Source: Octopus vulgaris (taxonomy: Eukaryota). From it: a stretch of DNA of 64,000 nt. The translations under genes and the position numbers were made by a program. Below the pieces are notes generated by a model. That model was not told the DNA's origin and ran no database searches. It saw only the letters and a program-made list of their open reading frames with translations. The stretch's first letter is position 1. Every line of letters begins with the position of its first letter. This document shows positions 1,931 to 39,874 of this stretch, in pieces. Location of the stretch: positions 12,338,001 through 12,402,000 of the forward strand of contig OX597819.1 of NCBI GenBank assembly GCA_951406725.2. Direction: 5' to 3'.

Positions 1931-1968
1931 CTTTGGATTTGTTTTGGTACCTCTGAGATCTCGACCTC
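1931..1968 (-). CDS. Gene A exon 6 (GGRDLRGTKTNPK), SRA finger loop; the gene continues beyond the left edge
   Basis: CCAG acceptor, GTAAGT donor, 38 bp, phase 1/0. GGRDL follows YTG as in SRA domains. Confidence 0.9.
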
Positions 1969-5045: not shown

Positions 5046-5106
5046 CTGTGGATTCCAGCATAGCTACACTCCACTCGGGACTGCCACCAGGTGCCGACTT
5101 CTACAC
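5046..5106 (-). CDS. Gene A exon 4 (GVEVGTWWQSRVECSYAGIHR), SRA domain
   Basis: CAG acceptor, GTAAG donor, 61 bp, phase 1/2. Aligns with the UHRF1-type [21 protein letters not shown]. Confidence 0.93.
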
Positions 5107-8119: not shown

Positions 8120-8222
8120 CTTCAATTGAACCAAATGTATTTTCTCGAAACTGAGGAATTCTCTTAGCTGGAGAAGGTTTATCCTCATCAAGAAGTTCAA
8201 TAAAATTGTTTTCAGATGGTTT
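8120..8222 (-). CDS. Gene A exon 3 (KPSENNFIELLDEDKPSPAKRIPQFRENTFGSIEG), start of the SRA domain
   Basis: TTTTCTAG acceptor, GTGAGG donor, 103 bp, phase 0/1. FGSIEG corresponds to the SRA 'YGPIPG' motif. Confidence 0.9.
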
Positions 8223-9307: not shown

Positions 9308-9457
9308 CTCTCCTCTCAATCTACAAGAACGCCTCACAGCACCAACACTGATTGAACCTTCATCTGTGGTAGAGGGTACAGATGATCTTTTGGAAGCCTT
9401 TGGTGTCCACAGTGCTTTGCGTTTAATTGGTTTGTGAACCACTAGAAATTTTTCCAG
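9308..9457 (-). CDS. Gene A exon 2 (LEKFLVVHKPIKRK...VRRSCRLRGE), basic linker with an RRSxRL motif
   Basis: Polypyrimidine-TAG acceptor, GTAAGA donor, 150 bp open frame, phase 0/0. Confidence 0.85.
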
Positions 9458-10646
9458 CTAAAAGGAAAGAAAAAAAAAGTGGGGAATTAAGGCCAAGTTG
9501 TAAGCATTATTTTCTAGCAAAAAAATCCACATCAACTGTGATATCTGCTCTGCATGCATTGTGAACGTATATCACCATAGTCATTGTAAAGTAAATCATC
9601 ATCATTTAACGTCCGCCTTCCATGCTAGCATGGGTTGGATGGTTTGATTGAGGACAAGGCGGCGAGCTGGCAGAAACGTTAGCACGCCGGATGAAATGCT
9701 TAGCGGTATTTCGTTTGCGTTACGTTGTGAGTTCAAATTCTGCCGAGGTTGACTTTGCCTTTCATCCTTTCGGGGTCGATAAATTAAGTACCTGTCCGCA
9801 CTGGGGTCGATGTAATCGACTTAATACCTATGTCTGTCCTTGTTTGTCCCTTCTATGTTTAGCCCCTTGTGCGTAATAAAGAAATAGGTTTGATTGCGGA
9901 CTGGTGAGCCAGATGGCTGCACCAGGCTCCAATCTGACCTAGCAGAGTTTCTACAGCTGGATGCCCTTCCTGACGTCAACCACTCTGAGAGTGTAGTGAG
10001 TGCTTTTACATGCCACCGGCAAGAGGGCCAAGCAGGCAGTACTAGCAATGACCTCACTCGAATATACAATGAACTACAGTGCCTTCTACTATAGCCTCGA
10101 GCTAGCCAAAGCCTTTTGAGTGGATTAGGTAGATGGAAACTGAAAGAAGCACGTCATATGTGTGTGTTCTCTCGCTTTACACTCCTTTAACCTAGTGGTT
10201 CAGTGAAAGAAACTGATGGAATAAATACCTAGGTTAAAAAAGAACAGAGGTTAATTTATTTGACTTAAAAAATTCAAAGTGGTGCCCCAGTATAGCCACA
10301 GTCTAATGACTGAAACAAGTAAAAGATAAAAATATCCTAGGAAAATCTCTTGGGCAAAAAGTTGGGAACCTATTTTATTTTGCAGATTTTAATAAGTGGG
10401 CAAGTGTCCACCAAAAATGAAGTCTAGCATGGTTCTAAATATTATCATCATAATCATTTAACGTCCACTTTTATACTGGCATGCGTTGGATGGTTTAACA
10501 GGAACTGGCCAGCTGAAGAACAACTCGGGCTCATTAAGTTATTTAGACTTTTGAAGCTTTTTAGCAAAGCAGGTGGTAAAAAAATAAATAATACTCATTC
10601 TTGTGCAGACAAAAAAAGCAATATATTACATGGAATTTTTATTTCA

Positions 10647-10977
10647 TCTTTATATATAAAAGTGAGGTCGTGTGTTGTCTGTCTCCTACGATTTAGATTC
10701 CTAACTACTCCCACATTTTCCGGTGCAGTTTAACCAAACCCACATTTTCCGGTGCAGTTTAACCAAAACCGGGTATCTTATAGTCGTGATTCATATTGAG
10801 CCCTTCTGGGTATTAGAGCGCGTCTACGATGAGTCTATGATTAAAAAAAAAATTTACCATCATTTTTTCCCATTTAAAATGCACTTTTTTGCTATTGTAT
10901 AAGGGAGGTAACTCTCTAAAAATGCTTATATAGTTATTTCCCTTACAAACCCGAGCAACGCCAGGCGATACTGCTAG
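10647..10977 (+). mobile_element. Non-autonomous Helitron
   Basis: A|TCTTTATATATAAAAG ... CCCGAGCAACGCCAGGCGATACTGCTAG|T, with a ~29-bp internal tandem duplication. Confidence 0.85.
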
Positions 10978-11559
10978 TTGAATATAAAGCAAAGGCATAA
11001 TTTTCATGAGAGAGAAAAAAATAACTTCTCATTAGAAAAATTAAAAAAAGGATGCATTTTCTATTTAGCTGATGAGGTCTAATAACATCGAAACATATAG
11101 AATTGCTTCCCTTGATCGCCAAAAGAGAAAATATTTAATGACCACACTAGAAAATTTCTTATTAGCTCCGTCCTGCATTAAATATACTAACACTAACTTT
11201 ACTACTTTATATTTGGTGACTTGCTTATCTGGATATGTATTTATAACCAATAAATGGTTTACTTGCAAAACAGCTGTCACCTAAAACCAATATTTTCGAA
11301 TCGACAACACGTAGTCGCGCGAACAGCCAAAAATATCTCCCGAATTACGCCCCTTTCGTTACTGCATCTATTCTGAGATGCTCTGTGTTTCTTTCAATTA
11401 CTTTAAGTATAATAAAGAATTTAGTAAAATAACTTTGTTATCGTTAAGTTAGTGTTAGGAACATAAATTGAGACTAAGGTTTGGTGGAAGATTTTAATGC
11501 AAAACTTATGAAGACAAGACATTTGTACTCAGAGCCAGAGCCGGGTTGGTGTAGAAGAT

Positions 11560-11799
11560 AAAAATTTAGCATAAGAAAACAGGCGGAAGAAAATTTGAAG
11601 AGGGACGAATGAAATGGAGGCCCATGACGACAGCCAACGCTACCTGGCGGAAAACAGATTTTACTAACTTGCAAGGAACGACAACTCTCTAAACAATGGA
11701 TTATTTATCACACTGCCAGCAACCGTGTTCACCGGAGTTTTAAGCTTTATATATATATATATATGTGTGTATATATATATATATATGATGAGGAAACAG
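11560..11799 (+). promoter_or_regulatory. Putative promoter and non-coding first exon of gene B
   Basis: CpG-richer unique region around 11.3-12.8 kb, with GGCGGAA motifs and a good donor (CAG|GTATGT) at 11799/11800. Confidence 0.35.
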
Positions 11800-14700
11800 G
11801 TATGTGGCGAAATTATATCGGTCCCTCTCTCTCTCTCCCCCCACCTCTGTTAAGTTAGTGAACTAATCTCGATTAAGAACGAGGCCCTACATGTGAATAT
11901 ATAGGTGTGTATGTGTATGTGAAAAGAAGGACTTAAAGCCCCGAGCGAGTCGAGAGCAGCATCTCGACTCCTGTTCATCATTTGTTTTTTAACTAAATGT
12001 TATATATCGTATCGTTAAATGGTCCTTAGTAACAGCAGGAGACGCTATTTCATGTCATGTCTCTTCCGCCGAGTCTTCTTTTGTGTCTATCTCTCTCTCC
12101 TCGGCCAACTTTAATCCCTCGTTTTTTTGTCTTCTTGAAGCATTTATCAATCGCTGCTGGCAACTTTTAAATTGATACATTTATTGTGAGTCGGTAACAA
12201 TCCGGAGGTTACAAGAAAATAAATATTGGTTGAAGAAGAACCATAAATCGAAGCCATTCAGGAACGCATGCTGGAAAGATTAACTAAAAAACATTTTGTG
12301 GTCTTATCGAAAATTAACGGCTTAACATCTTTCATGAGAGAAAACTTTCTGAAGAGAGGAGGGGGCAATCTTTCGTCTCTAGTAGACCTTTCCGTCGATT
12401 TCCGTATTTTTTTTTACATATGGGCTTGCGGGAACTTTTGAAGTAATATACATACATATACACATACACCGAGTAAAAAATTTCAGTTATCTCTCTCTTT
12501 CACACACACTAACAGAAGCACTTCACTTACACAATATACTGTGTCTCCCACACCCCATCAAACACACACACACACATGTACATCAATGCTTCCCATGCAC
12601 GGTAACTTCAAAAGAACTTCCCTCGTCATACAATCGCTTTCTCTTAGTCTCTTTCGCTCTCATTACCTCAAAAGTTCTGAAGAGAGGAGGAGGAACGAAC
12701 GTGTGGCTTTGGCATATTTTTTTCAATTCCAAGTAAAAAGAAAAAAAGGATGAGCGGAAGTAATATGGGAATCGCTAAAGATGCTCAGCTTTAAATCAAT
12801 CGGAAAACGATCCACCGAGAAAATCTTTTCATAGTTACTCGGCCTGCTAGAAAGAGTAGCCAGACCTTCCTCGAATCATACATGTTTGAAGCATTATTAT
12901 TTCTGTAAGGATCGCCTGTCAAATGTGCATTTTAATGATGATTGTGGGAGAAAGTTAATTTAAAAGACTTGCCTGCCATTTCTAGCAGACGTGTTGTCTT
13001 CACATGGAACATGTATTAATAACACAGGCTCCATGTGGCAGTTTTAAGGGAAGAGGGTTGTGCCGACACTGGTTCCAATGAAAAGTGGGTTTTTTTTTAC
13101 AACGTGGAACCATTTTCTGAGTGGAATACAAACTGTTCTGCCGATCTTGCCCAAGCAACCACAAAAATAAGCAAACATCAGGATGTGTTTTGTACGTGGG
13201 AAAGTTCCGCTGGTATTTCCCAGCATTAACAAAAATAGCCGAAGGACACAGATTTATCTTCGTTATAATAATAATTACACATACCTACACGAGAGTGTCC
13301 ACTCTGTTTTCTGAGGCATACCAAGTTTACCTATATTTAATGTGTATGCGTTCTCAGATTTAAAAAAATATATACATTTAAAGCTAGCTGCATAATCACA
13401 AAATTCCACGTTCGATCCCAACTGTGCGGAATGTGGGCCAAATGGCCTCTGCTCTCATTTCGGTTTCACGTAAAATACCTTGTTAAAGTTTAGTAGAAGA
13501 AACTATGCAGAAGACTGCAGCGTGGAAGCACCGGTAGAAAAAAAAAAGTCGGTGCTCTCTATGTTGCCACATCCATAACTTAGCGGGTCAACAAATAAAT
13601 CTTCGGACTCCAATAACAAACTAGGGAACAAATCCTCATTTTGCGTTGGATTTTCCAAACTTAACATCTCGCCACTTTATTCCAGTCTTTTGTTATCTTT
13701 GTAGGATCCAGCTTCCTAAGATCAACTTTCTATGCCTAAACCCTTCCACAGGTTTCTTCTGCTTAAATTTCTTGTCATTTCTTTATCCAACTCACCATCC
13801 GAAAGCAGCACACGTCCTTACCAGCTCAAATCTTCTCAACATCTGATTCCTCTTTTACAGTTTCCCCCACCCCCTTCCTCTAGGGCATGAGTTAAGCATT
13901 TCCTTTCACCTTTTGCACAACCCCCCTGTTCATTGCCTAGCTTTTATTACCATGCAAACATCGCACCAAGTACCACACAATTTGCTCTTTACCCCACCCC
14001 CAACAGAGGTAATTTTTCTCATTACATTCTCACTTTGGCTACTCTGCTTTTGCGGTACCTGCCAACCCAAACAATTTCATAGGTGCTCTTAAAAGTCCTC
14101 TGCCAGTCTGCTTGTGATCTCCACTTCATATCTTGTCCAGAGTTCACATTGGACAGGCTGTATGGATTTACTACATATTTCATACAGTGGCTACTTCTTC
14201 GATTGCCGGGAATCTTTTCGTTATTGACACGTTTGTCTTAATTTTCGATTTACATTTACATATATGCTCTGAGAGATGGCAGTCACAGACGTGGAATCCT
14301 GATTAAGAAGTTCAGTCTTACTGTGTGGCAGGAGGCATTGGACAAGTGTCTTTTATCATTGCCTTGGGCCAACCAAAGCCCTGTGAGTGGAACGTATATA
14401 TGTATGTGTGTGTGTTGTGTGCGCACACGCCTCCGTTCTGACATTGTGATAGATGTAAACAAGTGTCCCCTCATACAAACGGTGTCGTTCATTTCCATTC
14501 TTCCAAGCGTGTCTGATCAAACACATCTGGCCATAGAAAATTTGCTTTAGCATGGAAAAGTGGACGTTAAGGAGTGTCCGCATATACACACAATCAGCCC
14601 ATCTGCATATTCACACAAAATGCCAGAAAGCGAAGAACAAACCACATTGACATCTTTAAAAAAATATATTTATAAAAATCAAGTTAAACTCTGTGGCAAA

Positions 14701-16026
14701 TCTCAGAACCTACACAAAAAGTGAAAGAAAAAAAAAGTAAATGCCTCCATGGTAACCATCATTTGACGTCCGTTTTCCATGCTGGGAGGACTGCACCAGG
14801 CCCGTCGTCTTCTTTGGCGTAGTTTCTAGGGCTGGATGCCTTTCCTAATACCAACCACTTTACAGAGTGAACTGGGTACTTTTAATAATTATATACTACC
14901 TGTTCATTAAAAGCCTTTTAATTTTGAAGGCTTGGTAAATGAAACTCATTTTTAAAAAAATCTTGTCTTCAGATTTCGTGTTGATAAATAGAATTGGTTG
15001 CTAAGTTGAAATGAAGATCGTTATAGGCAATGGTTTAGCAACACCTTTTTCTAAACCATATAATTAAGCATAAAAAACCCATCTAAAAGTATTCTGCCCA
15101 TTTCTTTCATTTCCAATTATTTTTTGTCGCTTTTCAAATAATCCAATAAACTTTTTATTTTCCACATATCAATTCCTAAAAATCACTGATTAAAAGTTGA
15201 GATCCTCTTATTTCACTTAATGTCTTTCATTTTTTTCGAAGGTGGTAAGTTATATAGTCTATGGGAGATTTGACTGCTACTCTGAACCAGTTGAGCACTC
15301 AAATGGAAGAAAGCACCTCTGATTAGTCCTGACCAAGTACTTCCTTCAGGCCATTCTGGTTGTCAGATTTGAAATATTAGATTTTGAATTCTTTTCTCAA
15401 CAGGTTTCATATTAGTTCTCATCTAGACTGAAGCAGTACAAGTTACACTTTTATATTGCTTATCTTGTTTACACTTGATGAAAAAAAACTTTTTCAAAAT
15501 TTGAATTTTTTTTTTTTTTGTTTATCATCATTTAACGTCCATGTAGGCATGGGGGGTTGGATGGTTCGACAGGATCTGACAAACCAGAGCACTGTATCAG
15601 ACTCCAATGTCAGCATTGGCATAGTTCCTATGGCTGGATGCCCTTTTCTATGCCAACTGCTTTACAGAGTGCACTGTGTGCCTTTTCCTGTGGCATCAGT
15701 ACAAGTGAGATCACCAAATAACTTGCAAGACATGTGGGAGTGTGGTATTGAGGGAGGTAGCTTTACGCCAGGTGTCAAGAGGTTGAAAGATAAGAAAGAC
15801 AGAAACAGGTGTCTTGTTCAAGAGAAGATACATGGCTGGCTCCTGTTGGGAAGACAGGAGAGAGAATAGAGACGGAGGATCAGAGAGGGTGGGTGCTATA
15901 ATCATTTTGCTTCTGCCTGTCAGGATGTTGCTCAAAACTAATACAATTGATTTTTCTTACAGATTTATCAAATGACAATAACAAGAAGGAGTGAAATGAA
16001 ATAAGAAGAGAAGGAAGTGCCTCAAA

Positions 16027-16740
16027 ATGCCTCAGGTTTTACTTGAAGAAACTCACCGAAACCTAACATATCAAGAAAACAAACACGATGATTTCCTTCT
16101 CATTGAAGTGGAAGCAATTCTCCGACACCCAGACCCAGCAAAAATTACACTGTCCCCACCACTCTTCCCCAAAGGTGGTGATGTTTACCTTTACAAATCT
16201 GGTCCCCATGACAGAAGAGTCAAAGATAAATACTGGTGGGTTAACAGAGGGAACAACTTCCATTCAAAAAGTCAAAAGCGCCATGCCATTATGAAGACCT
16301 ACTTCAGTCTAAAAGACAGAAATGGCAGCAAGAAAAGTGATTGCCTTAATGGATTCAGGCGCCACATCTACCGCCTGGCGGATGCAAAAGATGACAGGAG
16401 AACATTAATGCTTGTACACTATCTTGGAGATGAGAAACTACACACAGCTATCCCTCATGGTAACAGCAAGCACAAAAAAGGTCAGAGTGAGAGCAGCAGC
16501 CATCAAGTAAAGACAATGCGAAGCAATGACTTGGACACAGCAACAATGACCGCCTCCTTACAGAGTTTGAATGCAGCTAAAAATGAACTGAGAACCTCCG
16601 ATGGTGTTGGAAGCCACGGCAAGATTATAAAGTCGCCAATCAACAACTTGAAGCAACCAAATTTTACCATTCAAACATTAAAAGACAATGGCAGTTCAGA
16701 TGATTTGAGAATCTGTTTGGAGAAATTAAAACACAAATCG
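16027..16740 (+). CDS. Gene B first coding exon: CG-1 (CAMTA-like) DNA-binding-domain protein
   Basis: Acceptor TTTTTCTTACAG ending at 15962, AAA-ATG start. Motifs PKGGDVYLY / KDKYWW / FRRHIYRL / LVHYL occur in the order of CG-1 PQNGSMILY / KDGYCW / FHRRCYWL / LVHYL. Donor TCG|GTAAGA in phase 0 at 16740; unspliced, the ORF would end at 16815. Confidence 0.8.
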
Positions 16741-16973
16741 GTAAGACTTCTTGTTTCAAATAACCTTTTCGGTTCTCCAGCAAAAGAGCTGCAGCAGAGC
16801 CAAAAGATATTTTAGAGCAAAATTGTTTCTCTTGTTGAAAATTTGAAGTGCTGTGTTCATTTTCTTAAACATTCAAATTTACAGAGATGTACTTGCATAG
16901 CAAGTGACCTGATCCAAGATTGTGTTCTGGAACGAAAACATTTGCAGCGTGGAAGGTGTTTATAAGCCGTTTC

Positions 16974-17179
16974 AGAAACACACAAAAAGCCGTTCGATTC
17001 ACTTCAACATTTAAATTTAATTTGCCAAAATATTTTCGTTGCTTTGAGACCGTGACCTGTTCTCTGAGATGCAGCACGGAATTTTGCCAGTGAACAGGTT
17101 GCGGTCTCAAAGTGATGGAAATATTTTGATAAATTAAATTTAAATGTTGAAGTGAATCTAACGGATTTTGTGTGTTTCT
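16974..17179. repeat. Imperfect inverted repeat with ~89-bp arms
   Basis: 16974-17062 pairs with 17092-17179; mismatches are mostly CpG-type transitions. Confidence 0.88.
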
Positions 17180-19042
17180 TAAATCAAATTTACAAATCCA
17201 AATGAAATATAGATATGCATTAATGCTTATATTCTCCTCCATCACTGTCCGATCCCCACACATCATCTCCCTATTTTCTGATCTAAGGGTTTATTGCTAT
17301 TTATCCCCTTTTTTCTTCACCCCCACCATCCCTACATTCACTCCTACCCCTATCTCTAACCACCTGTTGCTCTCCTCTCAAACTAAGGAATTTATCCACC
17401 CACCCTGCCCAATCGTGTGCATTCCCTCTCTTACACTCACCTTCTTGTACCCTGAAAGTAGGCACCAACACCCGGTCAGCACCATCATTGTGCTTTCAGT
17501 TTTTTCCCACCCACTTTTATATAATATGCAAGGTAGCTATATATCTCCTCTACAGCAAGACACCTGTGCCCCTGTCCTTCTGCCTTACTAAAATGTGGCA
17601 TCAAGCCACCTACCCCCTCCTACTACAGCCCTACTCTGTTAAAGGTTGTTTTTCTCATTGTCTTCTAAGTTACTTGGTCACCTCACTAGGGTTAGTGTTG
17701 CCAAATGGCTGGCATGAAAAAGACAAAACCATAAGATTGTCCTCTGGCTTGCTGGATGCTGAGTGACAGTGATGATAATTTGCATGTAGCTGGTCACCAT
17801 AGGAACAGAAAGCAGAAGAAATGTAAACAAATGAAGAACGTTCCACAAAGAACATGCTTAGAAAATTTGAATTGAAAACATTGAGAAAGTGGTTATTTCC
17901 ATAATAGTAAACCTGAGAGCCAAATGTCGGGTTTTGATTAAGCTTTGAATATTAAGCATCTCAGACCCCTGGGCCCTTGCGTCAAACTTTACCCTCCAAC
18001 TGGGCTCCTGAGAAAAAAAAAAAAAAAAAGTTGCACTTACAAGCACGGTTGTATGGTAAGAAGCTTGCATCCCAACCACATGGTTCTGGGTTCAATCCCA
18101 CAACACAACACCTTGGGCAAGTGTCTTCTATTATAGCCTTGTGAATGAATCTGGTCGACGGAAACTGAAAGAAGCGCATCGTGTATATATTTTGGTGGCA
18201 CATAAAAAGCACCATCTGAATGTGATCGATGCCAGGCCCACCTGACTGGCTTCTGTGCAGGTGGCACATAAAAAGCACCCACTACACTCTTGGAGTGGTT
18301 GGTGTTAGGAAGGGTATCCAGCTGTAGAAACACTGCCAGATCAGACCAGAGCCTGATGCAGCCACTGGCTTTCCAAACTGCAGTCAAACTGTCTAACCCA
18401 TGCCAGCATGGAAAGCAGATGTTAAACGATGATGATGATGTGTGTCTGTGTTCGTCCTTCCCACTCCATCGCTTGACAACTGGTGTTGGTGTGTTTATGT
18501 CCCCAGAACCTAGCAGTTTCGCAGAAGAGACCGATAGAATAAGTACAAGGCTTACAAAGAATATTTCCTGGGGTTGATTTGTTTGACTAAAGGTGGTGCT
18601 CCAGCATGGCTGCAGTCAAATGACTGAAACAAGTAAAATAAATAAACAGATGCAGCAGAGGCTGTGTGGTAAGTAGCTTGCTTACGAATCACATGGTTCT
18701 GGGTTCAGTCCCACTATGTGGCACCTTGGGCAAGTGTCTTCTACTATAACCTCGGGCTGACCAACACCTTGTAAGTGGATTTGGTAGAAGGAAACTGAAA
18801 GAAGCCCATTGTATATATGAATATATATATATATATATGTGTGTGTCTTTGTCCCTCCATCACTTGATAACCTATGTTGGTGTGTTTATGTCCCCAAAAC
18901 TTAGTGGTTTGGCAAATGACTGAAACTAGTAAAAGAATACAGCTCAAGATTAGGGATCAGCTGAATCTTCTCTTTCCTATGCTGTTCCTCACCAGTTTAT
19001 CAAGAATCCAGCAGAGACGACATTTAATATATTCCCGCCATA

Positions 19043-19448
19043 AGCGCAGGAGTGGCTGTGTGGTAAGTAGCTTGCCTACCAACCACATGGTTCTGGGTTC
19101 AGTCCCACTGCGTGGCATCTTGGGCAAGTGTCTTCTGCTATAGCCTCGGGCCAACCAATGCCTTGTGAGTGGATTTGGTAGACGGAAACTGAAAGAAGCC
19201 TGTCGTATATATGTATATATATGTATGTATATGTTTGTGTGTTTGTGTTTGTCCCTCTAGCATTGCTTGACAACCGATGCTGGTGTGTTTACATCCCCGT
19301 CACTTAGCGGTTCAGCAAAAAGAGACTGATAGAATACGTACTGGGCTTACAAAGAATAAGTCCCGGTGGGGTCGATTTGCTCGACTAAAGGCGGTGCTCC
19401 AGCATGGCCGCAGTCAAATGACTGAAGCAAGTAAAAGAGTAAAAGAGT
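19043..19448 (+). mobile_element. SINE family 1 copy (part of a cluster with copies at ~18040-18645, 18650-18935 and 20146-20548)
   Basis: Colinear with the family consensus. Confidence 0.88.
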
Positions 19449-19606
19449 ATAGCAGGAATATCAGGGTTAAGCTGTTCTTCTACATTTTAACTTTTCTGTG
19501 CAGGGCTGCAAATGTTTAGCCCCGTTGAGGCTCAGTCTGAAAAAGCACCACAGCAGTGGTACCCTGTCTTCTTGCTTCGTAACACTGTACCCGGTTACCC
19601 ATAACA

Positions 19607-19997
19607 TCTCTTCTCTCTCTATATAAACGGCAGTTTGTCTGTGCGTGTTTCTGTGTGTCTGTTTGCTTGTACCCTCACTCTGACCACGGCTTTCAACCGA
19701 TTCTGATGAAACTTGACACACACATAGCCCAATGTCATAATTCAAAACTAACGCAGCGAAAACTTTGAAAAGTTCCCCCAGTTCTGAAAAAAATCGATAA
19801 ATTCGACATGGGGTCGAGAATCTGAAACCCAAACCACAGACTGTCTAGGGGACGCAACTCCACCTTTTTTAACTCTCAAAAAAAAATTTACCATCATTTT
19901 TTCCCCATTTTTTTGCTATTTTTTGGCTATAACTCTCTAAAAATGCTTTATAGTTATTTCCCTTACAAACCTGAGCAACGCCGGGCGATACTGCTAG
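19607..19997 (+). mobile_element. Non-autonomous Helitron with a different 5' half and the same 3' end
   Basis: Shares the final ~120 bp and CTAG|T with the other copies. Confidence 0.75.
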
Positions 19998-21109
19998 TTA
20001 TTAATAAGGCACTGAGCAAGCAGAATCATTAATAGATTTAACAAAATGCTCAACAGCATTTCCTCTGGTGTCTTATGTTCTGCATTCAGCCATCACAGGG
20101 GACACAATTGCTTTTTATTTTTCACTAGTTTAATAAAATAAATAGGTGCAGGATGTGGCTGTGTGGTAAGTAGCTTGCTTACCAACCACATGGTTCTGGG
20201 TTCAGTCCCACTGCATGGCACTTTGGGCAAGTGTGTCTTCTACTATAGCCTCGGGCTGAACAAAGCCTTGCGAGTGAATTCGGTGGACGAAAACTGAAAG
20301 AAGCCCATCATGTATATCTATGTATGCGTGTGTGTGTGTGTGTGTGTGTCATTGTGTTTGTGCGCCCCCCCACCCCCCCATCGCTTGACAACCGATGTTG
20401 GTGTGTTTATGTCCCTGAAAATTAGCAGTTCAGCAAATGAGACTGATAGATTAAGTACAAGGCCTACAAAAATAAGTCCTAGGGTAAATTTCTTCGACTA
20501 AAGGTATGCTCCAGCATGGCCATAGTCGATTGACTGAAACGTGTAAACAATTACCAGTCACATACGAGGCAAAGGGGGGGGGGGTCAATGCAATCGACTT
20601 CCTCCCCTCACAATTACTGGCCTTGTGCCATACTTATTTAGTCAATAGGGATATTGTTTCTTCTGATTCTCGCAGAATACAGGATGCTACTTTTTAGCAA
20701 GTCAACAATACATATCTCAATTCTAATGCTTTTCAACCTCATAGATAGCATCTTGGGTATTGTGCCAAGTGCACTGAGCTCCCCCCCACTCAAGCCATGC
20801 CAAACTCATGAGGGCCGGTTTCCTGCTTTCAATGGCGATATATATTTACCCACCTGGACGGGACGCCGGTCTGTCGCAGGATTATTCATTTTTGCTGGTT
20901 GAGTGAACCGGAGCAATGAGAAAATGAAGTGTTTTGCTCAAGAACATAACACGTCGCCTGGCCCACGAATCGAAACCACAATCTTAAGATCATGGGTCCA
21001 ACACCCTAACCACTAAGCCACACATCTCCACAAGTGCACTATTTACTACAAGACCAATTGATACATTATTTACATTTGACAGATATTTGTTCCCATCTTG
21101 TTTATTGTT

Positions 21110-21155
21110 AACACAATGTTTCGGCTGATATACCCTCCAGCCTTCATCAGGTGTC
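21110..21155 (-). ncRNA. Minimal hammerhead ribozyme motif (second copy)
   Basis: Same core on the reverse strand. A partial third copy lies at ~50943-50975. Confidence 0.62.
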
Positions 21156-22999
21156 TTGGGGAAATTTTCAACCTGGGTTTTCATTCCTAAAGTATTTTTC
21201 GATATTATTAATTTTATTATTATTCAGGTCACTGCCTGGAATTGAATTTGGAATCTTGGGGTTAACCACTATGCCATATGCCTGTGGGCAATTATGGAGT
21301 GAATTTTAGGGCTTATAATTGTCACCTTTCACAAATCTCCCTATCTCTCTCCTGTTATTTCTTAATTCCTTTGGTATCCATCTCATCAAATGCTATTGCA
21401 AAGTCTATGATGATAAAGTTATTTTTCCCCTTTGTTCTCTTCAATCATACCTGGTCTCCTTGCTTCAATAGCATTGTCAGTCTTTATGGGGGAGATCCCC
21501 ATAAAATCCTGTAATTATTATTGTCCACAGCCTCTGTCTCATTATTATGCTTGAGTCAATAGCATGATATGAAGGAGATTGACTGCTATTTCCAACAAGT
21601 CAAGCCACGACATACAGACATCCATCGTGTAACTGTTTTGTTCCCAGATTTCTGCTGAAATACACTTTGTTGCAATCAGTTTTCAAAATAATGGAACAGT
21701 TCTTCAAATACCCGTTATTATTTAGCCAGTATTTGAAATATAGGATCACAGGATCCAGCTTTTCCTTAACACCAAGCAATTTACAACACGTACCAGGTGC
21801 TTTTTTTTCGTGCTACTGACACTAGCGAGGTTGCCATGCAACTTGAATGGCTGACCCAGGTCAGCCCTGAATGGGCAATATCCCGCTTTAATTAATTGCG
21901 TGCCCACGGCGCCAGAAACCGATTCCAAGAAGATCGACCACCCAAGAGGAAAGACTCAGCAACGAAGTGGTTAGTGACTGGTCTGGAGGAAGAGACTACA
22001 ATATGAGGACGAGGTGACCGTGGCTCGATACGATAGTAAAGACAGATCTATTATCAAAAACGTTCCAGCCACGACCATCTCGTAACTTTTTTTTCTTCTT
22101 CAATGTATCAAAGATTACATTATCCCCTGTTGTGCTCTATAAACATAGGGTTGTGATATGCATGGATTAAGCTGCTATTTTCTTAGAAAAGTTGTAAGTT
22201 TGGTCGATGTTGTTTAGCTCTAGGACAACCCCAACCCAGTAAATCAATGATCAAGAGCATGCCAACCGTGACCCTCTCGTCTTTTCACTATCAACTGATG
22301 ATTCAGGGATAGCAATATATGACGTTATTTTCTAAAATGATGGGGTGTGCTTCGAGGGTGATTTGGCTACTATTTCTATCATGTAGAGCAACCACTTAAC
22401 AAGAGGTTCTTAGTAAAAGCATTATGCCGGCAGTAGATAAAATATTATGGCAATCTATTTCATTTCCGCAATACAAAAAAACAGGTGGCCGTTGATTTAG
22501 TCATTTATTGTCTTCCCATCTTTCCCCCAAAATATTAATTTTGAATGTTTTAGCAGGAAATAGAATCTGCAACAATACGAGATGTGCGGTGAAACGTTTT
22601 CTTTTTTTAAAAATAATTTCACAACCGAAAACTTTTTTAAAATCTACGTTTTATAAACAACAGTAAAGCAATTCGCTCTACTTTTTAAAATAAATTCGTT
22701 GATAAACAACAAATTTTCTTATTTGAAACATTGTGGTTTTGTAAATAATTTTAGAAATGACACTTATAAAGTTGTTAGGAGTTTAAAAAAAAATATTGAA
22801 TATTTAAAAAAATTACGATGAAAAAGTTCCCTATCTTCTTAAGATATGAAAATTTATGCTTTTGACAAAGATAAAAGCTAAAACTTCATTGAAAAAGCAC
22901 GTGTGTTACCGGCTTAGCCGGTTTAACCCTGCTTAACCGACGATTTAAGAAGAGGAAACAAAGAAAAGAATAACTTAATATGGACGAAAAACAACTTAC

Positions 23000-23083
23000 A
23001 GAATGACGGATTCCCAGCTCAGCCAAAACCCTCCGATTGTCGGCGAGATTTTTCAGACGAAGTTTTTCGTATTCGCTGCACAT
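23000..23083 (-). CDS. Gene A (SRA/YDG-domain protein) coding exon 1: MCSEYEKLRLKNLADNRRVLAELGIRHS
   Basis: AAAA-ATG start context, 28 codons ending at a GTAAGT donor in phase 0, matching the phase-0 acceptor at 9457. CpG-richer promoter-like DNA lies just upstream. The link to exon 2 across a 13.5 kb intron is inferred. Confidence 0.75.
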
Positions 23084-23099
23084 TTTTCGTTTTTAGAAA

Positions 23100-23340
23100 A
23101 AGAGATTAAAACCGATTTAATCTTTAACAGGAAAATATATCAGAGAGAAATCTGATGAATTTCAATTAAAAGAGTCTTCTTTTCGACTCCGTCAGAGAAT
23201 TGTGTGGCTGTAAATACAGATACACGTTCCGTGTGGGGTCCAGTCTCCCGCGAAATTTATGTCACGTGCTACCATATCGGAATGTTGATTGGTCGTTTGT
23301 ATTATCTAGGCGTAACGGCGGGAAAACAACTGCTTCTATA
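23100..23340 (-). promoter_or_regulatory. Putative promoter of gene A
   Basis: Locally CpG-richer, repeat-free DNA upstream of the ATG, with an E-box (GTCACGTG, ~23261) and a CCAAT box on the minus strand (ATTGG, ~23288). Confidence 0.45.
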
Positions 23341-24417
23341 ACTCCACCTAATGTCATAGTGACAACAATTTTGAAATTACTTCCGTTTAAAATAATTGCA
23401 GATATTCTCTCCTTTAAATCACTGAATAAGATCGATTCTCAATATTTTTTTTCGTTTACTCTCTATTTCCTATTTCCCTGTAAACATCTGTTTTATTAGT
23501 GAGCGACTATATAAGTTCGGATAGAATATGTATGAGATCTTGTTGAAACCTATTTCTTTATTACCCACAGAGGGGACAAACAAGGACAGACATAGGTATT
23601 AAGTCGATTACATCGACCCCAGTGCGTAACTGGTACTTAATTTATCGACCCCGAAAGGATGAAAGGCAAAGTCGACCTCGGCGGAATTTGAACTCACAAC
23701 GTAACGACAGACGAAATACCGCTAAGCATTTCGCCCGGCGTGCTAGCGTTTCTGCCAGCGGTTTTTAACCTCGACACCTGGAATAAAACGAAATCGTCGT
23801 TAATAAAATATTGACAAAATGAAGCTTGAAGAATAAATTTAAAATATAAAATAAATTCTTATTTATCGACAGATTTCGATTCCAGTTGTAGATCTTTGTA
23901 TAGACATAAAACATTTATACAGCTTTAGTCCTTTTGGCCGCTCATTTTGTAAAATTGTATACTGTATAATTCTCCAGAAGAGATCTGTAACTGTCTCTTA
24001 GATATTACACATTATTTGTTGGTTGAAAATAAATTAATAAAATATATAACTAATATTTAGATGTAAAAGCAAAGGTGACGATTCCATATCAGAAAGTAGT
24101 GCCATGTCATCTTAGTCGAGTATTTCCGGAAGTTTTTTTTTATATATATTCAAGCCATGCTATTCTGTTTTTGTTGCTTTATCGCTTAATTTCCTTTCAA
24201 TGTTGTTCAATATGGGACATAGCTTCCGTTTCGTATGAGAAATCAAACAATTTGAAAATTGATGACTTCAACAAGATGAGCGAACACACACACCATCATC
24301 ATCATTTGAAATGCCTTTACGGTGACATGTTGCTAAGTGCTCAGCCACTTGCATGTTAAATTCAAGAGCAACTAGTTCCATTGTCATCGCAACGGGTAGT
24401 GCCCCACTCTCTGTGTG

Positions 24418-24466
<49 letters not shown>

Positions 24467-24724
24467 ATATAGATATATATGTATATATTCTTTTCGTTTC
24501 GGCCATTTGACTGTGGCCATGCTGGAGCACCGCCTTTAGTCGAGCAAATCTACCCTAGGACTTATTCTTTGTAAGCCTAGTACTTATTCTATCAGTCTTT
24601 ATTGCTGAACTGCTAAGTTACGAGGACGCAAACACACCATCGGCTGTCAAGCGATGTTGAGGGACAAACACACACACACACACAAACAGATACACACATA
24701 CATAAATACATATACGACGGGCTT

Positions 24725-24827
<103 letters not shown>

Positions 24828-26007
24828 GTTCTGGCATAGTTTCTATGGATGGATGCCCTTCCTAATACGAACCACTCTGCCTGCCTGCACCTTTTCTGTG
24901 TATTGTGTAGGGTCATTTACCTGATGGAAGAAGGGTCTTGTCCACTTTCTTGCTCACTTCTACCCACTTCTCTGCCACAAGTATTTCTAACCTGCCTACC
25001 CCATCACTTCTCCCTATCTAGAAGAATTTATATCTATGCCCTTTGCCCACGTGTTGTCTTGCATGCAGCAAACATCTGCATTTCAACAATCATCATCATC
25101 ATCGTCGTTGTCGTCATCATTGTCGTTTTATGTCTGCTTTCCATGCTGGCATGGGGTGGACGGTTTAACTGAGGACTGGTGAGCCAAGAGGCTGCACCAG
25201 GCTCCAATCTGATCTGGCAAGGTTTCTACAGCCGGATGCCCTTCCTAATGCCAACCACCCCGAGAGTGGAGTGGGTGCTTTTTATGTACCACCGACATGG
25301 GGAGCCAGTCAGGCAGCACTGTCATCGGCCACAACTATAATTTCCATTTTGATTTCGATCTTGATTTGATTTTGATTTTGATTGACATATATAGACATAC
25401 ACTTAAAAAATGTCAAGTAGTATATTCCTAGTTATGGCATAGAAGTTTACCATTTGTTTTGCGTCTAGTATTGCACTTGGAAATAGAGACAACTCATCAG
25501 ACATACTAACCAGTGTATCTAATGGACTGTCTGTATTCCCATATTTAGGAATAAGTTTCATGAAGGTGCTTGGATCAGTGGTCAGAGCATCGAGCTTACG
25601 AGCATGAGGTTGAGTTCGATTCCTGGGCTGGGCTGTGTGTTGTGTTCACTCAGCTGTAGAAATGAATTGCAATGTCACTGGTACCAAGCTGTGTTGGCTG
25701 TTGCCTTTCCCTTGGATAACATCAGTGGCGTGGAAAGGGGAGGCTGGTGTGCATGGGTGCTGCTGGTCTTCCACAAAAACAACCCCAAGTTGTGCGTTCG
25801 CCAGTGAGGCAACTTTCCACCCAGACTTGTACCCTGGAGGATGGACCTTTTAGGTGCACCCATGGTCATTTGTGGCCAACAGAGTCAAGAGAACTTTATG
25901 ACAATATAAAAGTATAACTATCCAAATTCTGCCGGCTTGCTGCCTTACACTGGATATATTAAAGAAGAATGAAGTGCATTTCAGCACTAAGTTTGTTTTT
26001 ATTGATA

Positions 26008-26397
26008 CCTCCGTGCCGGTGGCACGTAAAAAGCACCATCCGTTCGTGGTCGTTGCCAGCCTCGCCTGGCCCTCATGCCGGTGGCACGTAGAAAGCACCA
26101 TCCGTTCGTGGCCGTTGCCAGTGCCGCCCCGACTGGCCTCCGTGCTGGTGGCACGTAAAAGCAGCATCCGTTCATGGCCGTTTGCCAGCTCCGTCTGGCA
26201 CCTGTGCAGGTGGCACGTAAAAAGCACCCACTACACTCGTGGAGTGGTTGGCGTTAGGAAGGGCATCCAGCCGTAGAAACACTGCCAGATCAGACTGGGC
26301 CTGATGCAGCCTTCTGGCTTCACAGACCCCAGTTGAACCGTCCAACCTATGCTAGCATGGAAAGCGGACGCTAAATGATGATGATGATGATGATGAT
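26008..26397 (+). mobile_element. RTE 3' UTR/tail copy with four internal sub-repeats. Other tail copies at about 7585, 8837, 9596, 18192, 25090, 29496, 31500, 36652, 37133, 40848, 44826, 50461, 52965 and 56605
   Basis: GGTGGCACGTAAAAAGCACC units, then TTAGGAAGGGCATCCAG and a (GAT)n end. Confidence 0.85.
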
Positions 26398-26543
26398 TCA
26401 GTGATGTAGGATTTTTGTGTTTGCTTGTGAGGGGAACAAGTGAGATTAGCACAATGGAATTAGTATGGGAGTAAATATATTGTAAAAAGATATCTTTGTA
26501 ATAATTGTTTTCTCTAATGTTTTTCTCATGGTTATTGTTTCAG

Positions 26544-27881
26544 GCTAATCACTCTGAACTGGTAGAAAGCAACTTATTGACACCAACAAAAATAAGACGA
26601 ACAGATGGAAACACTTATAACATTCAAGGCACCTTGGCCCTTGCACATCATCATCCTGTGAACCAATCTAAAACAGCTTCTCAACTCTGGACAGGGGATA
26701 ACAAACAAAACCATTCTCAAGTCCATTCTGTGGTACCAGTGTCCCGAACAAACACGGCCCTGTTGGCTTCTGTTTTACCGAACAAAGACAAACCCCAAAT
26801 GAGGATCCAGGATGAACGTATTAAAAATCAAACAGTTTTCCATAACCGACACCAGTTGAACATGTCATTCCAACAAAGGAAAAAGCTGCAGCAGTTACAG
26901 AAAGTAGACAATTCTCTTGCAAGTTTGATGCCAAGGTCTTTACACGCTGCAGAAAGTTTGTCTTTCAAAAACCTCCAATCTTTGGGTCTAAATGCCAGCC
27001 CAGATGTTCATCTCAGTAAAAGGGGTGTAAATCCTTCTGAGCACCAGACTTCTAAAAATGGTTGTGCAGATACAGTGAAGCAATCTAGTCTGGTGAATTG
27101 TCCGGAAACTGATTCCAGATTACAAATAGACTACATGAAACTGTTTGAAGAAGCTTCAAAATTGCCACAAATGGGTTGTGATGTGTTTGTTCTTGTATCA
27201 TATCCTGGCTGTAAACCAGCTTACTGGGGCACCAAAAAATATGTACAGAAATTTGAAAATTCTGAGTGTTTGCAGCCTTATGTTGCTTCAAATTGTCTTT
27301 CTGTGAAGTTAAAAGACTCTTCTTTGTCTCCTAAAAACTTGAATCATTCTGAATCAGAAACAGACAATAGACTTGGTAAATTAAGAATTTCAAACTCAGC
27401 AAATAATAATAAAAGTGTAGTGACTCTGAAGAAGGAACCGATGGAGGATGATTCTCCAGACAATAATAACAGAATCCCAGAAGTCACAATAAAAGACGAA
27501 ATCCTTGAAGATGTAATTATTAGAGACTCTACTGGACTTGCTAATGGTAACCGTGACTTAACAGAAACTATAAGGAACTCCGTAAATGGAATTAACAATT
27601 CCAGGGGGCAGAGTTTACAAAAAGACAATACATTTAAAAATTCTTTGCAAAGAACTATAGAAGAACAGTACAAATCCATGTACAGAACACAAGAGAACTC
27701 AATGTCCTTTGACCAAATTATACCTCAGACTAGCAGAAGGAAAGACAAGAGATCCGTTGCTGATGAGATGACATGTCATAATAAAGATACAAAAAATATT
27801 GGGGGGAATTCAAACGGGACGTTATCAACTCCAGTTTATGTCAAAATAGAATCTTTGGCTGATGATCTTGAAAACAGATAA
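26544..27881 (+). CDS. Gene B terminal coding exon (445 aa): N/S/Q-rich region, MADS-like segment and SUMO consensus sites
   Basis: TTGTTTCAG acceptor in phase 0, compatible with the 16740 donor. 1.3 kb open frame, psi-K-x-E motifs LKKE, IKDE and VKIE, possible ATTAAA polyA signal at 28011. Confidence 0.75.
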   Translation, partial: ANHSELVESNLLTPTKIRRTDGNTYNIQGTLALAHHHPVNQSKTASQLWTGDNKQNHSQVHSVVPVSRTNTALLASVLPNKDKPQMRIQDERIKNQTVFHNRHQLNMSFQQRKKLQQLQKVDNSLASLMPRSLHAAESLSFKNLQSLGLNASPDVHLSKRGVNPSEHQTSKNGCADTVKQSSLVNCPETDSRLQIDYMKLFEEASKLPQMGCDVFVLVSYPGCKPAYWGTKKYVQKFENSECLQPYVASNCLSVKLKDSSLSPKNLNHSESETDNRLGKLRISNSANNNKSVVTLKKEPMEDDSPDNNNRIPEVTIKDEILEDVIIRDSTGLANGNRDLTETIRNSVNGINNSRGQSLQKDNTFKNSLQRTIEEQYKSMYRTQENSMSFDQIIPQTSRRKDKRSVADEMTCHNKDTKNIGGNSNGTLSTPVYVKIESLADDLENR

Positions 27882-28084: not shown

Positions 28085-28375
28085 TCATCATCATTGTTCG
28101 ATCGTGGTCGAGACAATGGAATTTACTATGTTATGCCAGACTTTACGGTCCATCATAGCATTACGGAGGTCTTGTTGCTGGATGCCTGTATCCCTGGAGA
28201 TTACATCAGGGTAGGAGAATATGCACCCTCTGGTATCGCGAGCAGATGGCTTCCAGAGGAGAAGAGTAGAAATTACCTCGTTTTCAGCTCTACAACAATG
28301 TCCAGCAAACTGGACTCTTCTACCTTTCACAAGAGATGATACAGGCGGTAATTTCCCATATATTTGTACTTTGGT
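28085..28375 (-). mobile_element. RTE/RTEX-like LINE 3' fragment
   Basis: RRVQFAGHCCR...LLLWKP...YPDVISRDTG...AMMDRKVW, followed by a short GAT tail. Confidence 0.7.
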
Positions 28376-28892
28376 GGGAAATAAATTAGAAATTATCCTG
28401 TGGTGGAAGGGAAATAGTATGAATCCCTAATGATATTTGAATTAGTTTGGTAAGTACAGGGAGGCAACTCTGCACAGATTTGGTTTTATAACATCGTCAG
28501 CAAAACAGTTTTACCATAATTATTTCAAGTTAACTTTTAATATTCCCTCTATTAAATATGTTAACACCAACTTAACTATTGTTTCTCGTATGAATGACGT
28601 CTCTGAGTTATTTATTCCTGTTGACTTTGATTGTGATTTTCAATATTTTAATACATTTTATTGGTCGCGATTTCGTTTGACTCTCAATACTCCTGGAAGA
28701 CACAAATGTGGGAGCTCATATGGTTTTGTGTTTACAGTTGAAAGTAACGATGCTTGCACCAATTAGTGAGCCATAAACACAAAACTATACACTGCTCACT
28801 TTTGTGCCGTCCAGGGATAAAGGTAAACAATCATATCCACTAAAGCATACGCGCAGCTTCAGAGGGTTGAACCATTCTTAAAATTGCTATAT

Positions 28893-31381: not shown

Positions 31382-33458
<2,077 letters not shown>

Positions 33459-38440: not shown

Positions 38441-39874
38441 TCAGTCCAGTTCGAACAAGATGTTGTTACTGAACTGAAATGGACAGTAAGTTTGATGCTC
38501 ATTTTTCTGTAAACTAGACATTGGTGTGCTTTCCCAACTAAGCATTGAATCCACTTTGTAAATATCTGAAGAATTAACTGTACAACTCTCTTTGCTCTTG
38601 CTGTCGGAATTGTCCTTCAGATTGGAAGTATCTATACAGTGGCCGTTTTCTTTGGAAGAATTTTTATCTGCGACATTTTCATCGACTTCAACAACTTTAC
38701 CGTTGATTTTTAAATCTTTACATTTATCCCCATCAGAGTTCCCTTTTGATATCGTCTTATCAAAATCGAACTTATCTCCCTCACCCTCACTTCTAACCGT
38801 TGTTGGCGCCGTTACATCGACCTCTGTCTCTTCGGTGAAACTGGAAGAAGACAAGGCTGTATCTAAGCTTTGTCCATTTGAAGTGTGGTGCTCTGAAGTA
38901 TTATTATTATTGGGGTCGTTAGTAATGGAAAGAGCAGCCATTTGTGTCAGTGTTTGGTCAACTTGTGCTGTGGCTACTTCATTAGAGTCAACATCAGGAG
39001 ATTCTGAGACTTCAGGGTCATCAAGTTCTGGCAGAAGGGTATTACTTACAGCTGCTGTCATTAAATTATCCAAACGACTTTTCTCTGTTTCCGTAAGTTT
39101 GCTGTTATTGCAGCTACTGCTAGTTTCCATAACCTCGAGTGAGGCACAGTTTTTCGATCTCTTGCTACCGTTTCGTTTCGATTTGGAGGCTGGATTTTTA
39201 CGGGAGCGGAAGTTGTAGTTATTGTTCTCAGACTGAGAGGAAGGCTCAGTTTGTGAAGGGTCAGGCATAGGTTGGCCATTCTGATCATAACCAGAGTCTG
39301 TATCATGATCAGAGGCCTCAGTGTTACTCGTTTCATCTGTTTCATCCACAGTGCTACTGCTGGCGCCACCTTCCTGTTTGTTTCCACTTCGGGCAAATGA
39401 AGTGGATTTCTTTTTATTATTTTTGCCTTCATGTGTTTTGGACTGAGATTTACTGCCGTGTTCCCCTGTACCTTTCTTCTTAGTCTCTTCTCCTTCACTG
39501 CTCTCCGCACTACTTTGTCGTCGTCGGCGCCGACCATTCTTTCTGCGTTCTTCACGCTGTCGGTTTCGTTTTCGTTTACTCTTCAACATACTACGCATAC
39601 TGGAGACCGTGGAATTGGTTTTGAACATAGCTTGGTCGATACGTTCGTTAAATGAAACCGATTTCTTGACAGTCGTAAAGGGACTGTCCACTGAGGAAGT
39701 ATCGGGGGACGCAGACAACGTAACGTTTTCATCACTAGATTCAGACATAGTCTTCGAGTACTGTTTCAGAATTCCTTGTAAATGTGGAAGCCTTTTATGA
39801 TGTACAACTTCTATACTCGGATATGTCGATGGCTCGGTGTCTGTTGTGTCAGACTCAGAAACTGTACGACCCAC
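38441..39874 (-). CDS. DNAAF2: Kintoun / dynein axonemal assembly factor 2, terminal exon
   Basis: TTTCAG acceptor in phase 0. The C-terminus HQTYCPFQFSNNILFELD* resembles the kintoun F-x-F-x-N-x-L-L-Y/F-D/E-L-D end. The GILK...SESS...KKSVSF...KRKR block resembles invertebrate kintoun. Confidence 0.8.
   Translation of the reverse strand: MGRTVSESDTTDTEPSTYPSIEVVHHKRLPHLQGILKQYSKTMSESSDENVTLSASPDTSSVDSPFTTVKKSVSFNERIDQAMFKTNSTVSSMRSMLKSKRKRNRQREERRKNGRRRRRQSSAESSEGEETKKKGTGEHGSKSQSKTHEGKNNKKKSTSFARSGNKQEGGASSSTVDETDETSNTEASDHDTDSGYDQNGQPMPDPSQTEPSSQSENNNYNFRSRKNPASKSKRNGSKRSKNCASLEVMETSSSCNNSKLTETEKSRLDNLMTAAVSNTLLPELDDPEVSESPDVDSNEVATAQVDQTLTQMAALSITNDPNNNNTSEHHTSNGQSLDTALSSSSFTEETEVDVTAPTTVRSEGEGDKFDFDKTISKGNSDGDKCKDLKINGKVVEVDENVADKNSSKENGHCIDTSNLKDNSDSKSKESCTVNSSDIYKVDSMLSWESTPMSSLQKNEHQTYCPFQFSNNILFELD

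Follow-up and report, generated by a model that had tools for sequence, protein, structure and literature searches.

Nested and interleaved genes, in which exons of one gene lie in an intron of another gene on the opposite strand, are a general class of gene arrangement. Here, we describe two genes, A and B, in a 64-kb window of Octopus vulgaris contig OX597819.1; all coordinates are positions in this window. Genes A (- strand) and B (+ strand) are mutually interleaved, with each gene carrying a coding exon in an intron of its partner. In contrast to nested genes, the nesting is mutual, and neither partner fully contains the other.

Among the closest described systems are human protein-coding gene pairs whose 5' ends overlap, of which 582 have been reported (PMC8076222). 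Like the octopus genes, they are coding genes on opposite strands, and transcription of each gene runs through the promoter of the other. The human overlaps arise mostly via alternative start sites, whereas the octopus pair apparently uses its main transcripts. The octopus pair also differs in an overlap of 7-11 kb that includes conserved coding exons of both genes and is free of exon-exon overlap. A mechanism reported for the human pair INO80E/HIRIP3 needs paired transcripts (PMC11890862), whereas the octopus exons found share no complementary sequence. In the available part of PMC5534336, the term 'interleaved genes' occurs only in a figure legend. Our literature search, which reached few subscription journals, found no published account of the A-B pair.

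Genes A and B are protein-coding, lie on opposite strands, and overlap at their 5' ends, and their layout is that of a known class, the 5'-overlapping gene pair. Its unusual features are how long the overlap is, the conservation and coding nature of both intercalated exons, and the likely coleoid-wide age. We propose, with a probability of about 0.62, that the head-to-head overlap has been kept because the two genes cannot be disentangled, and not as a switch.

Exon order and splicing of genes A and B

The exons of the two genes alternate along the window in the order A2 (-, 9308-9457), B1 (+, putative, donor at 11799), B2 (+, 15963-16740), A1 (-, 23000-23243), and B3 (+, 26544-27881). An earlier note on this DNA had proposed this order, which stands in the window sequence, with B1 as a putative exon. 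Intron 1 of A holds, on the + strand, the likely promoter of B together with B1 and B2. Intron 2 of B holds, on the - strand, A1 and the likely promoter of A. A simple nested gene is rejected, as the last exon of B lies beyond the 5' end of A, and the later exons of A lie beyond the 5' end of B. The features of the two genes are as follows.

1931..1968, - strand: exon 6 of gene A, in the finger-loop region of SRA; bounded by AG/GT, frame maintained, agrees with protein records P0005, P0030, and P0032
3808..3923, - strand: gene A exon 5, SRA core with thumb and pocket motifs; Pfam SAD_SRA E 2.1e-12
5046..5106, - strand: gene A exon 4, start of SRA; Pfam SAD_SRA E 2.9e-5
8120..8222, - strand: gene A exon 3; RNA contig, run X5 record 25
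9308..9457, - strand: gene A exon 2, phase 0/0, with the basic motif RRSxR; X5 record 25, orthologues P0005 and P0006
9458..22999, - strand: gene A intron 1, 13.5 kb; absent from X5 record 25
23000..23243, - strand: gene A exon 1, 5' untranslated region and 84 coding bases; X5 record 25 begins at 23243
23244..23330, - strand: likely A promoter with E2F-type sites at 23248-55 and 23318-25, an E-box at 23263, and CCAAT at 23292; adjoins the RNA 5' end
10988..12500, + strand: CpG-rich stretch, likely B promoter; CpG observed/expected ratio 1.01
11758..11799, + strand: gene B exon 1, non-coding, putative, 5' side running into (TA)n; best of seven ACAG donors
15963..16740, + strand: gene B exon 2, CG-1-like domain (residues 27-133), phase-0 donor; run X2 record 20, X5 record 29
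16741..26543, + strand: gene B intron 2, 9.8 kb; joined frame gap-free to P0001, RNA contigs depart at 16741
26544..27881, + strand: gene B exon 3 as far as the stop codon, with a linker of low complexity and a conserved domain of ~60 residues; 95.5% identical to P0001 residues 239-683

The six exons of gene A comprise 184 codons with no stop codons, GT donors, and AG acceptors at five internal exons. Gene A continues beyond the start of the window, which contains 184 of the 358 residues of the protein. Identity reaches 182 of the 184 residues with the Octopus bimaculoides orthologue P0005, and 154 with that of Argonauta (P0006). The start ATG is at 23083, and the coding part of A1 (23083-23000) corresponds exactly to a conserved N-terminal helix. 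The splice joins were read from a table of aligned contig pieces; the tables of joints and loose ends were swamped by dispersed repeats. In record 25 of run X5 (2459 nt), positions 1-242 align to 23243-23000, positions 243-392 to 9457-9308, and positions 393-498 to 8222-8117. A DNA-type contig of run X15 (22043-23184) is unspliced across position 23000. Since the record positions are consecutive and the DNA runs through, the 13.5-kb intron 1 of A is spliced, and the A1-A2 junction 23000/9457 proposed earlier is borne out. In the O. vulgaris model P0031, gene A starts instead at 13933-13910 with eight other residues, and the helix is dropped. This alternative first exon is not among the RNA pieces listed and is likely a prediction artefact.

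The reading frame of gene B begins with the ATG at 16027. Segments 16027-16740 and 26544-27881, when joined, encode 683 residues with no stop codons, 650 of which are identical, without gaps, to O. bimaculoides P0001. The CG-1-like domain and the C-terminal block are also combined in one chain in Argonauta P0002 and in two squid/cuttlefish-type Logan proteins, which come from contigs of 2.8 and 4.0 kb. The RNA contigs of runs X2 and X5 cover 15959-16741 and then contain 1586 and 1588 more 3' letters, respectively. Contigs were placed on the genome up to 24400, and B3 begins beyond this limit; if the extra letters belong to B3, they would end near 28131. The contigs are consistent with a B2-B3 splice in O. 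vulgaris RNA, and the join itself is seen in the orthologous proteins. The gap-free orthologue frame and the departure of the RNA contigs at 16741 agree with the predicted join 16740/26544. A LINE (long interspersed nuclear element)-like open frame at 28094-28426 may fall within the 3' untranslated region of B.

The same contigs bear on an alternative raised in the earlier note, in which B2 would form a nested gene of its own, complete with the stop at 16815, and B3 would be transcribed separately from a divergent promoter at ~23.3 kb. The frame of unspliced B2 is open past the donor to the stop codon at 16815, and the CpG-rich stretch near the A promoter continues to 24.4 kb. However, both RNA contigs leave the genome sequence at 16741, and full-length two-domain proteins occur in all four clusters of relatives, two of them on the 2.8- and 4.0-kb contigs. 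Furthermore, the read-through tail is poorly kept, with 10 of 23 residues retained in the one relative compared, against 211 of 238 in the exon. The nested form of B2 is refuted as the main form of the gene, and we regard this alternative as extremely improbable.

The X2 and X5 contigs extend 5' of B2 by 16 and 38 unplaced letters. As both match the genome from 15959, the exon upstream of B2 ends in ACAG. Seven ACAG|GT sites are located upstream on the + strand within the window, and the one at 11799 is the best, at the 99.8th percentile of GT sites (percentiles are ranks among GT sites scored with generic donor weights). This donor lies in a stretch skipped as a repeat, and exon B1 is therefore inferred; alternatively, the first exon of B may lie upstream of the window. 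Exon 2 contains two short upstream open reading frames of 10 and 2 codons (15972-16004, +) ahead of the B start.

Both cross-links, A1-A2 and B2-B3, are in phase 0, as the earlier note stated. Its description of their splice sites as strong holds in part: the joins themselves are supported, but the A1 donor is moderate, at the 91.5th percentile. The RNA contigs place the 5' end of A at or beyond 23243 and exon 2 of B at 15963, and the two strands share at least 7281 bp of transcribed sequence. The shared length is likely about 11.4 kb if B1 is counted, in agreement with the 7-11.5 kb that the earlier note gave for transcription from facing promoters. There is no overlap between A and B exons among those found, the 5' end of B being unmapped.

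The window contains no N, and its GC content is 31-45% per 2 kb. DNA contigs of runs X15 and X16 bridge 12668-14390, 15534-16904, and 21381-23184. Dispersed repeats are abundant in the region at 16.9-21.4 kb, and no DNA contig among those listed bridges it, which would be compatible with a misordering of the B1-B2 and A1 blocks in the assembly of two truly divergent neighbours. Against such an artefact, the window is free of N, whole blocks would have to have been exchanged cleanly with both strands preserved, and the shortened models of gene A in Sepia and O. vulgaris fit a real overlap. We consider a misassembly very improbable. Inverted copies of one dispersed repeat, 89% alike, are located at 9666-9891 and 23546-23759, one inside intron 1 of A and the other just upstream of the A promoter.

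Promoters and expression of the overlapping genes

The putative promoters of both genes are rich in CpG. The CpG observed/expected ratio of 1.01 at the 5' side of B, and of 1.42 at the 5' end of A (22400-23545, in a stretch reaching 24.4 kb), compares with 0.54 over the whole window and 0.19 in the adjacent body of A. Exons and their flanks are CpG-depleted, with ratios of 0.17-0.40. Octopus DNA methylation is found mainly in gene bodies (PMC9476566). The combination of CpG-rich 5' ends with gene-body methylation points to two protected promoters, each within the gene body of the partner.

The likely A promoter contains two of the three matches to the E2F-type motif TTTSSCGS in the 64-kb window, in which six were expected. 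Two such matches within 150 bp occurred in 4 of 5000 Markov controls, for a motif that was picked after looking. The E2F/E-box/CCAAT/E2F cluster resembles the promoters of G1/S-regulated genes. The human genes UHRF1, CDCA7, and WDR76 are listed in a table of RB-E2F targets (PMC9090780). The A and B promoters are ~11.5 kb apart, and a motif scan found no motif set common to both.

Spliced contigs of both A (record 25) and B (record 29) are present in the bulk run X5. This run is one of the two RNA-type runs compared, and its contig depth cannot rank expression. In the other run, X2, the A exons are uncovered, which we counted neither for nor against the expression of A. Among 73 human 5'-overlapping pairs analysed, 33 showed positive and 3 negative correlations of expression, and overlap did not lower expression (PMC8076222).

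These data bear on the inference of the earlier note that interference could make the expression of the two genes mutually exclusive. In such a reciprocal switch, transcription through the partner's promoter would silence it per allele or cell, so that A, for example, would be on in cycling cells and B in resting cells. Each promoter does lie within the other transcription unit, the 5' end of A carries two E2F-type sites, CCAAT, and an E-box, human UHRF1, CDCA7, and WDR76 are tabulated as RB-E2F targets (PMC9090780), and the linkage is retained from octopus to cuttlefish. However, run X5 yields both spliced transcripts, the human pairs with negative correlation are few (3 versus 33; PMC8076222), both promoters are still CpG-rich, arguing against lasting germline silencing, and entanglement alone explains the linkage. 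Mutual exclusion is not supported by the bulk data or the human pairs, and a switch appears unlikely to us, although exclusion may operate at the level of single cells, since X5 is a bulk run.

The opposite effect, in which the overlap co-activates the pair through open chromatin or nascent sense-antisense pairing, as for INO80E/HIRIP3, would fit the presence of both transcripts in X5. Human overlapping pairs tend towards higher, positively correlated expression (PMC8076222), and a duplex/R-loop mechanism has been reported for INO80E/HIRIP3 (PMC11890862). Nevertheless, mature A and B mRNAs could not pair, given that none of their exons found overlap, and the promoters are distant from each other and without a common motif set in the scan. 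Such facilitation is, in our assessment, rather improbable. The co-occurrence of transcripts in X5, the human correlations, and the non-overlapping exons together favour tolerated convergent transcription.

In the mechanism that we propose, transcription of each gene would start at a promoter of its own, CpG-rich and likely unmethylated, within an intron of its partner. Polymerases would only occasionally share the 7-11 kb, so that interference would be transient and both mRNAs could accumulate. Gene A would be a likely E2F-driven, proliferation-linked reader of modified cytosine. Both intercalated exons are coding and conserved, A1 specifying the helix of the protein family and B2 the CG-1-like domain.

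Linkage in coleoids and origin of the layout

The exon order was read in the O. vulgaris window, and linkage elsewhere was assessed from accession adjacency and contig membership. The accessions of A and B are neighbours on a single contig in O. bimaculoides (XP_014774604/5 and 607), O. vulgaris (CAI9723818 and 816/817), Argonauta (GAB1608516 and 517), and Sepia pharaonis (CAE1160860 and 861, on a 2.03-Mb contig). In O. sinensis, A and B are each on a contig of equal size. Adjacent accessions from octopus to Sepia indicate that the A-B linkage is likely coleoid-wide. The synteny expected in other cephalopods is thus seen as neighbouring genes in O. bimaculoides, Argonauta, and Sepia, whereas interleaving outside the window is only inferred. 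Octopods and decapodiforms separated roughly 270 million years ago.

Gene models of cuttlefish are suggestive of the same arrangement. In a cuttlefish-type cluster of B proteins, three short members depart from the full protein at residues 251-252, and three others begin at residue 269, which is circumstantial evidence that an intron interrupts the same linker. In Sepia, the A model is without the first 67 residues, and the B model crosses that point. Circumstantially, these are the models that would be expected from a gene predictor that avoids overlaps.

A breakpoint anywhere in 9.5-26.5 kb would cut at least one of the genes, which would hold the linkage together across coleoids. The layout most probably originated from a CG-1 exon nested in intron 1 of an older gene A, which was later spliced to an exon beyond the A promoter. 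Gene A is old, its family spanning animals and fungi, the named full-length relatives of B are all coleoid, and the stop codon of unspliced B2 lies just past the donor; this makes the joining of a nested CG-1 exon to B3 the simplest path. Tandem duplication with reciprocal loss received no support as the origin, although in so old an event it may still have taken place: blastn and tblastn searches for remnants of A1, B2, and the promoters found none, and returned only shared repeats and one 48-bp match of 75% identity.

Several points weigh against the explanation by tolerated entanglement. The exon order is not independently confirmed, since 16.9-21.4 kb is unbridged. The named O. vulgaris protein records are letter-identical to the window proteins (683 of 683 residues for B, and 184 of 184 within the window for A), and are therefore not independent support. 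The co-occurrence of the transcripts comes from one bulk run, the RNA status of which was guessed and is backed by its spliced joints. Adjacency in other species is by itself no proof of interleaving there. The narrow range of B is based on one search limited to proteins of 460-2000 residues, and, without a duplicated remnant of A1 or B2, the origin is not demonstrated.

Elsewhere in the window, a 173-codon frame with no Pfam match at 39064-39582 (-), beside a CpG-rich stretch at 39.5-40 kb, is possibly the start of a third gene. The frames at 28094-28426, 32743-33357, and 747-1043 resemble the ends of LINE reverse transcriptases.

Proteins encoded by the gene pair

The domain assignments made earlier, SRA in A and CG-1 in B, hold, with an E-value of 2.1e-12 for SRA and a marginal score for CG-1. 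Gene A encodes an SRA domain only, and its 358-residue orthologue carries PF02182 alone. A profile of A matches the SRA structures of UHRF1 with an E-value of 1.5e-54, and the motifs of the 5-methylcytosine pocket are aligned and kept. The thumb motif is TVAG instead of HVAG, and the finger loop is six residues longer than that of UHRF1 and without the NKR motif. The protein is not a UHRF1 orthologue, as it is without the UBL, tandem Tudor, PHD, and RING domains, and its thumb and finger loop differ; octopus UHRF1 is a separate gene (PMC9476566).

Short SRA proteins have been described before. YDG-OCTBM of O. bimaculoides is a short single-SRA protein without CpG-recognition residues (PMC9476566), and A fits it by description, not by accession match. 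Uhrf1 of Cryptococcus neoformans resembles A in domain content, being SRA-only, without Tudor, PHD, and RING; it binds hemimethylated DNA and supports 5-methylcytosine (bioRxiv 10.1101/149385). The available texts of these two sources mention neither an N-terminal helix nor a gene overlap for these proteins. The nearest Atlas clusters of A contain cnidarian and basidiomycete SRA proteins, and named relatives include Ptychodera, Mytilus, Lineus, Nymphon, Frankliniella, Geosiphon, and Rhizophlyctis. To judge from these sequences, A belongs to a eukaryote-wide SRA-only family of animals and fungi, characterized by a predicted N-terminal helix, the RRSxR motif, and a long-loop SRA domain. An iterated profile, itself made from this set of sequences, detected the helix in 70 of the 150 best representatives and in none of 150 reversed controls; the set was chosen by likeness to A, and many of its helix-less members are fragments. 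The helix is present in 65 of 105 long-loop proteins, 2 of 22 of the UHRF1 type, and 3 of 23 others. In P0072, P0074, P0083, and P0102, the family protein appears to be fused behind DUF7923, in three of them with CCCH zinc fingers; these are either real fusions or merged models of adjacent genes.

The N-terminal helix of A may resemble the HELLS-binding helix of CDCA7 and the N-terminus of WDR76. A search of the PDB with a full-length profile of 41 A-family sequences found no CDCA7 chain to E 10, and no helix-only search was made. CDCA7 combines its HELLS-binding helix with a zf-4CXXC_R1 domain (PMC11343034, PMC12718391). In overall design, CDCA7 and WDR76 are like A in having a helix, a basic linker, and a DNA-reading module. 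Protein A has SRA in place of zf-4CXXC_R1, with PF02182 as the only domain recorded in full-length orthologues, and differs from WDR76/Cmr1 in having SRA and no WD40. WDR76 co-purifies with homologues of LSH/HELLS (PMC4714748, bioRxiv 10.1101/650028); HELLS is the weakest of its three partners, and is absent from the N-terminal binders named in the figure legend (bioRxiv 10.1101/650028). Tentatively, and less likely than not, A could act as a second type of adaptor for HELLS/DDM1, common to animals and fungi, in which a helix of the CDCA7 or WDR76 type would be joined to an SRA reader. The supplement of PMC10538959, with rows read by column position, lists HELLS, UHRF1, and CDCA7 in octopus; for Cryptococcus, it has entries for HELLS and a UHRF1-like protein, and CDCA7 is missing. 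Since octopus already has all three, A would be an addition there and not a replacement. A combined reading, in which such an adaptor would be gated in the cell cycle by convergent transcription of the coleoid CG-1 gene B, appears quite improbable, and the gating is its weak link.

The CG-1 match of B scores 24.0 bits, against a cut-off of 23.5 (Pfam PF03859). Three of its four relatives score 21.3-22.9 bits, and the fourth has no match. Like CAMTA/CG-1 proteins, B has an N-terminal CG-1-like domain, with a borderline score. It differs from CAMTA in that TIG, ankyrin, and IQ have no Pfam match in B or its four relatives, and in a C-terminal domain of no known family. This domain of ~60 residues (about 428-494; 27100-27310, +) is nearly invariant in five of five aligned proteins, whereas the rest of exon 3 drifts between octopus and cuttlefish-type proteins. 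The C-terminal block has no match in Pfam, the PDB, or Atlas. Its structure model, a helix-strand-strand-helix with a predicted local distance difference test (pLDDT) score of 46.1, and that of the CG-1 domain (pLDDT 29.7) are too poor for a fold search. A faint resemblance of the block to the dimerization half of MADS-box proteins (SRF/MEF2) gained no support from the same three databases. Full-length relatives of B form four clusters, in which all named members are coleoid. The pairing of a methyl-CpG reader with a protein of CG motifs, suggested in the earlier note, is weak: the pocket motifs of A are kept, but its thumb and finger are altered, the short octopus SRA protein has been described as lacking the residues that recognize CpG (PMC9476566), and CG-1 is borderline.

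The overlap would account for the shortened gene models in public cephalopod annotations. If the helix of A indeed recruits HELLS, the family would connect an SRA reader with nucleosome remodelling in a way so far overlooked. If so, it would also provide a candidate stand-in for CDCA7 in Cryptococcus, which has HELLS and a UHRF1-like protein (PMC10538959). The locus itself offers a natural setting in which to ask if convergent transcription is tolerated or put to use.

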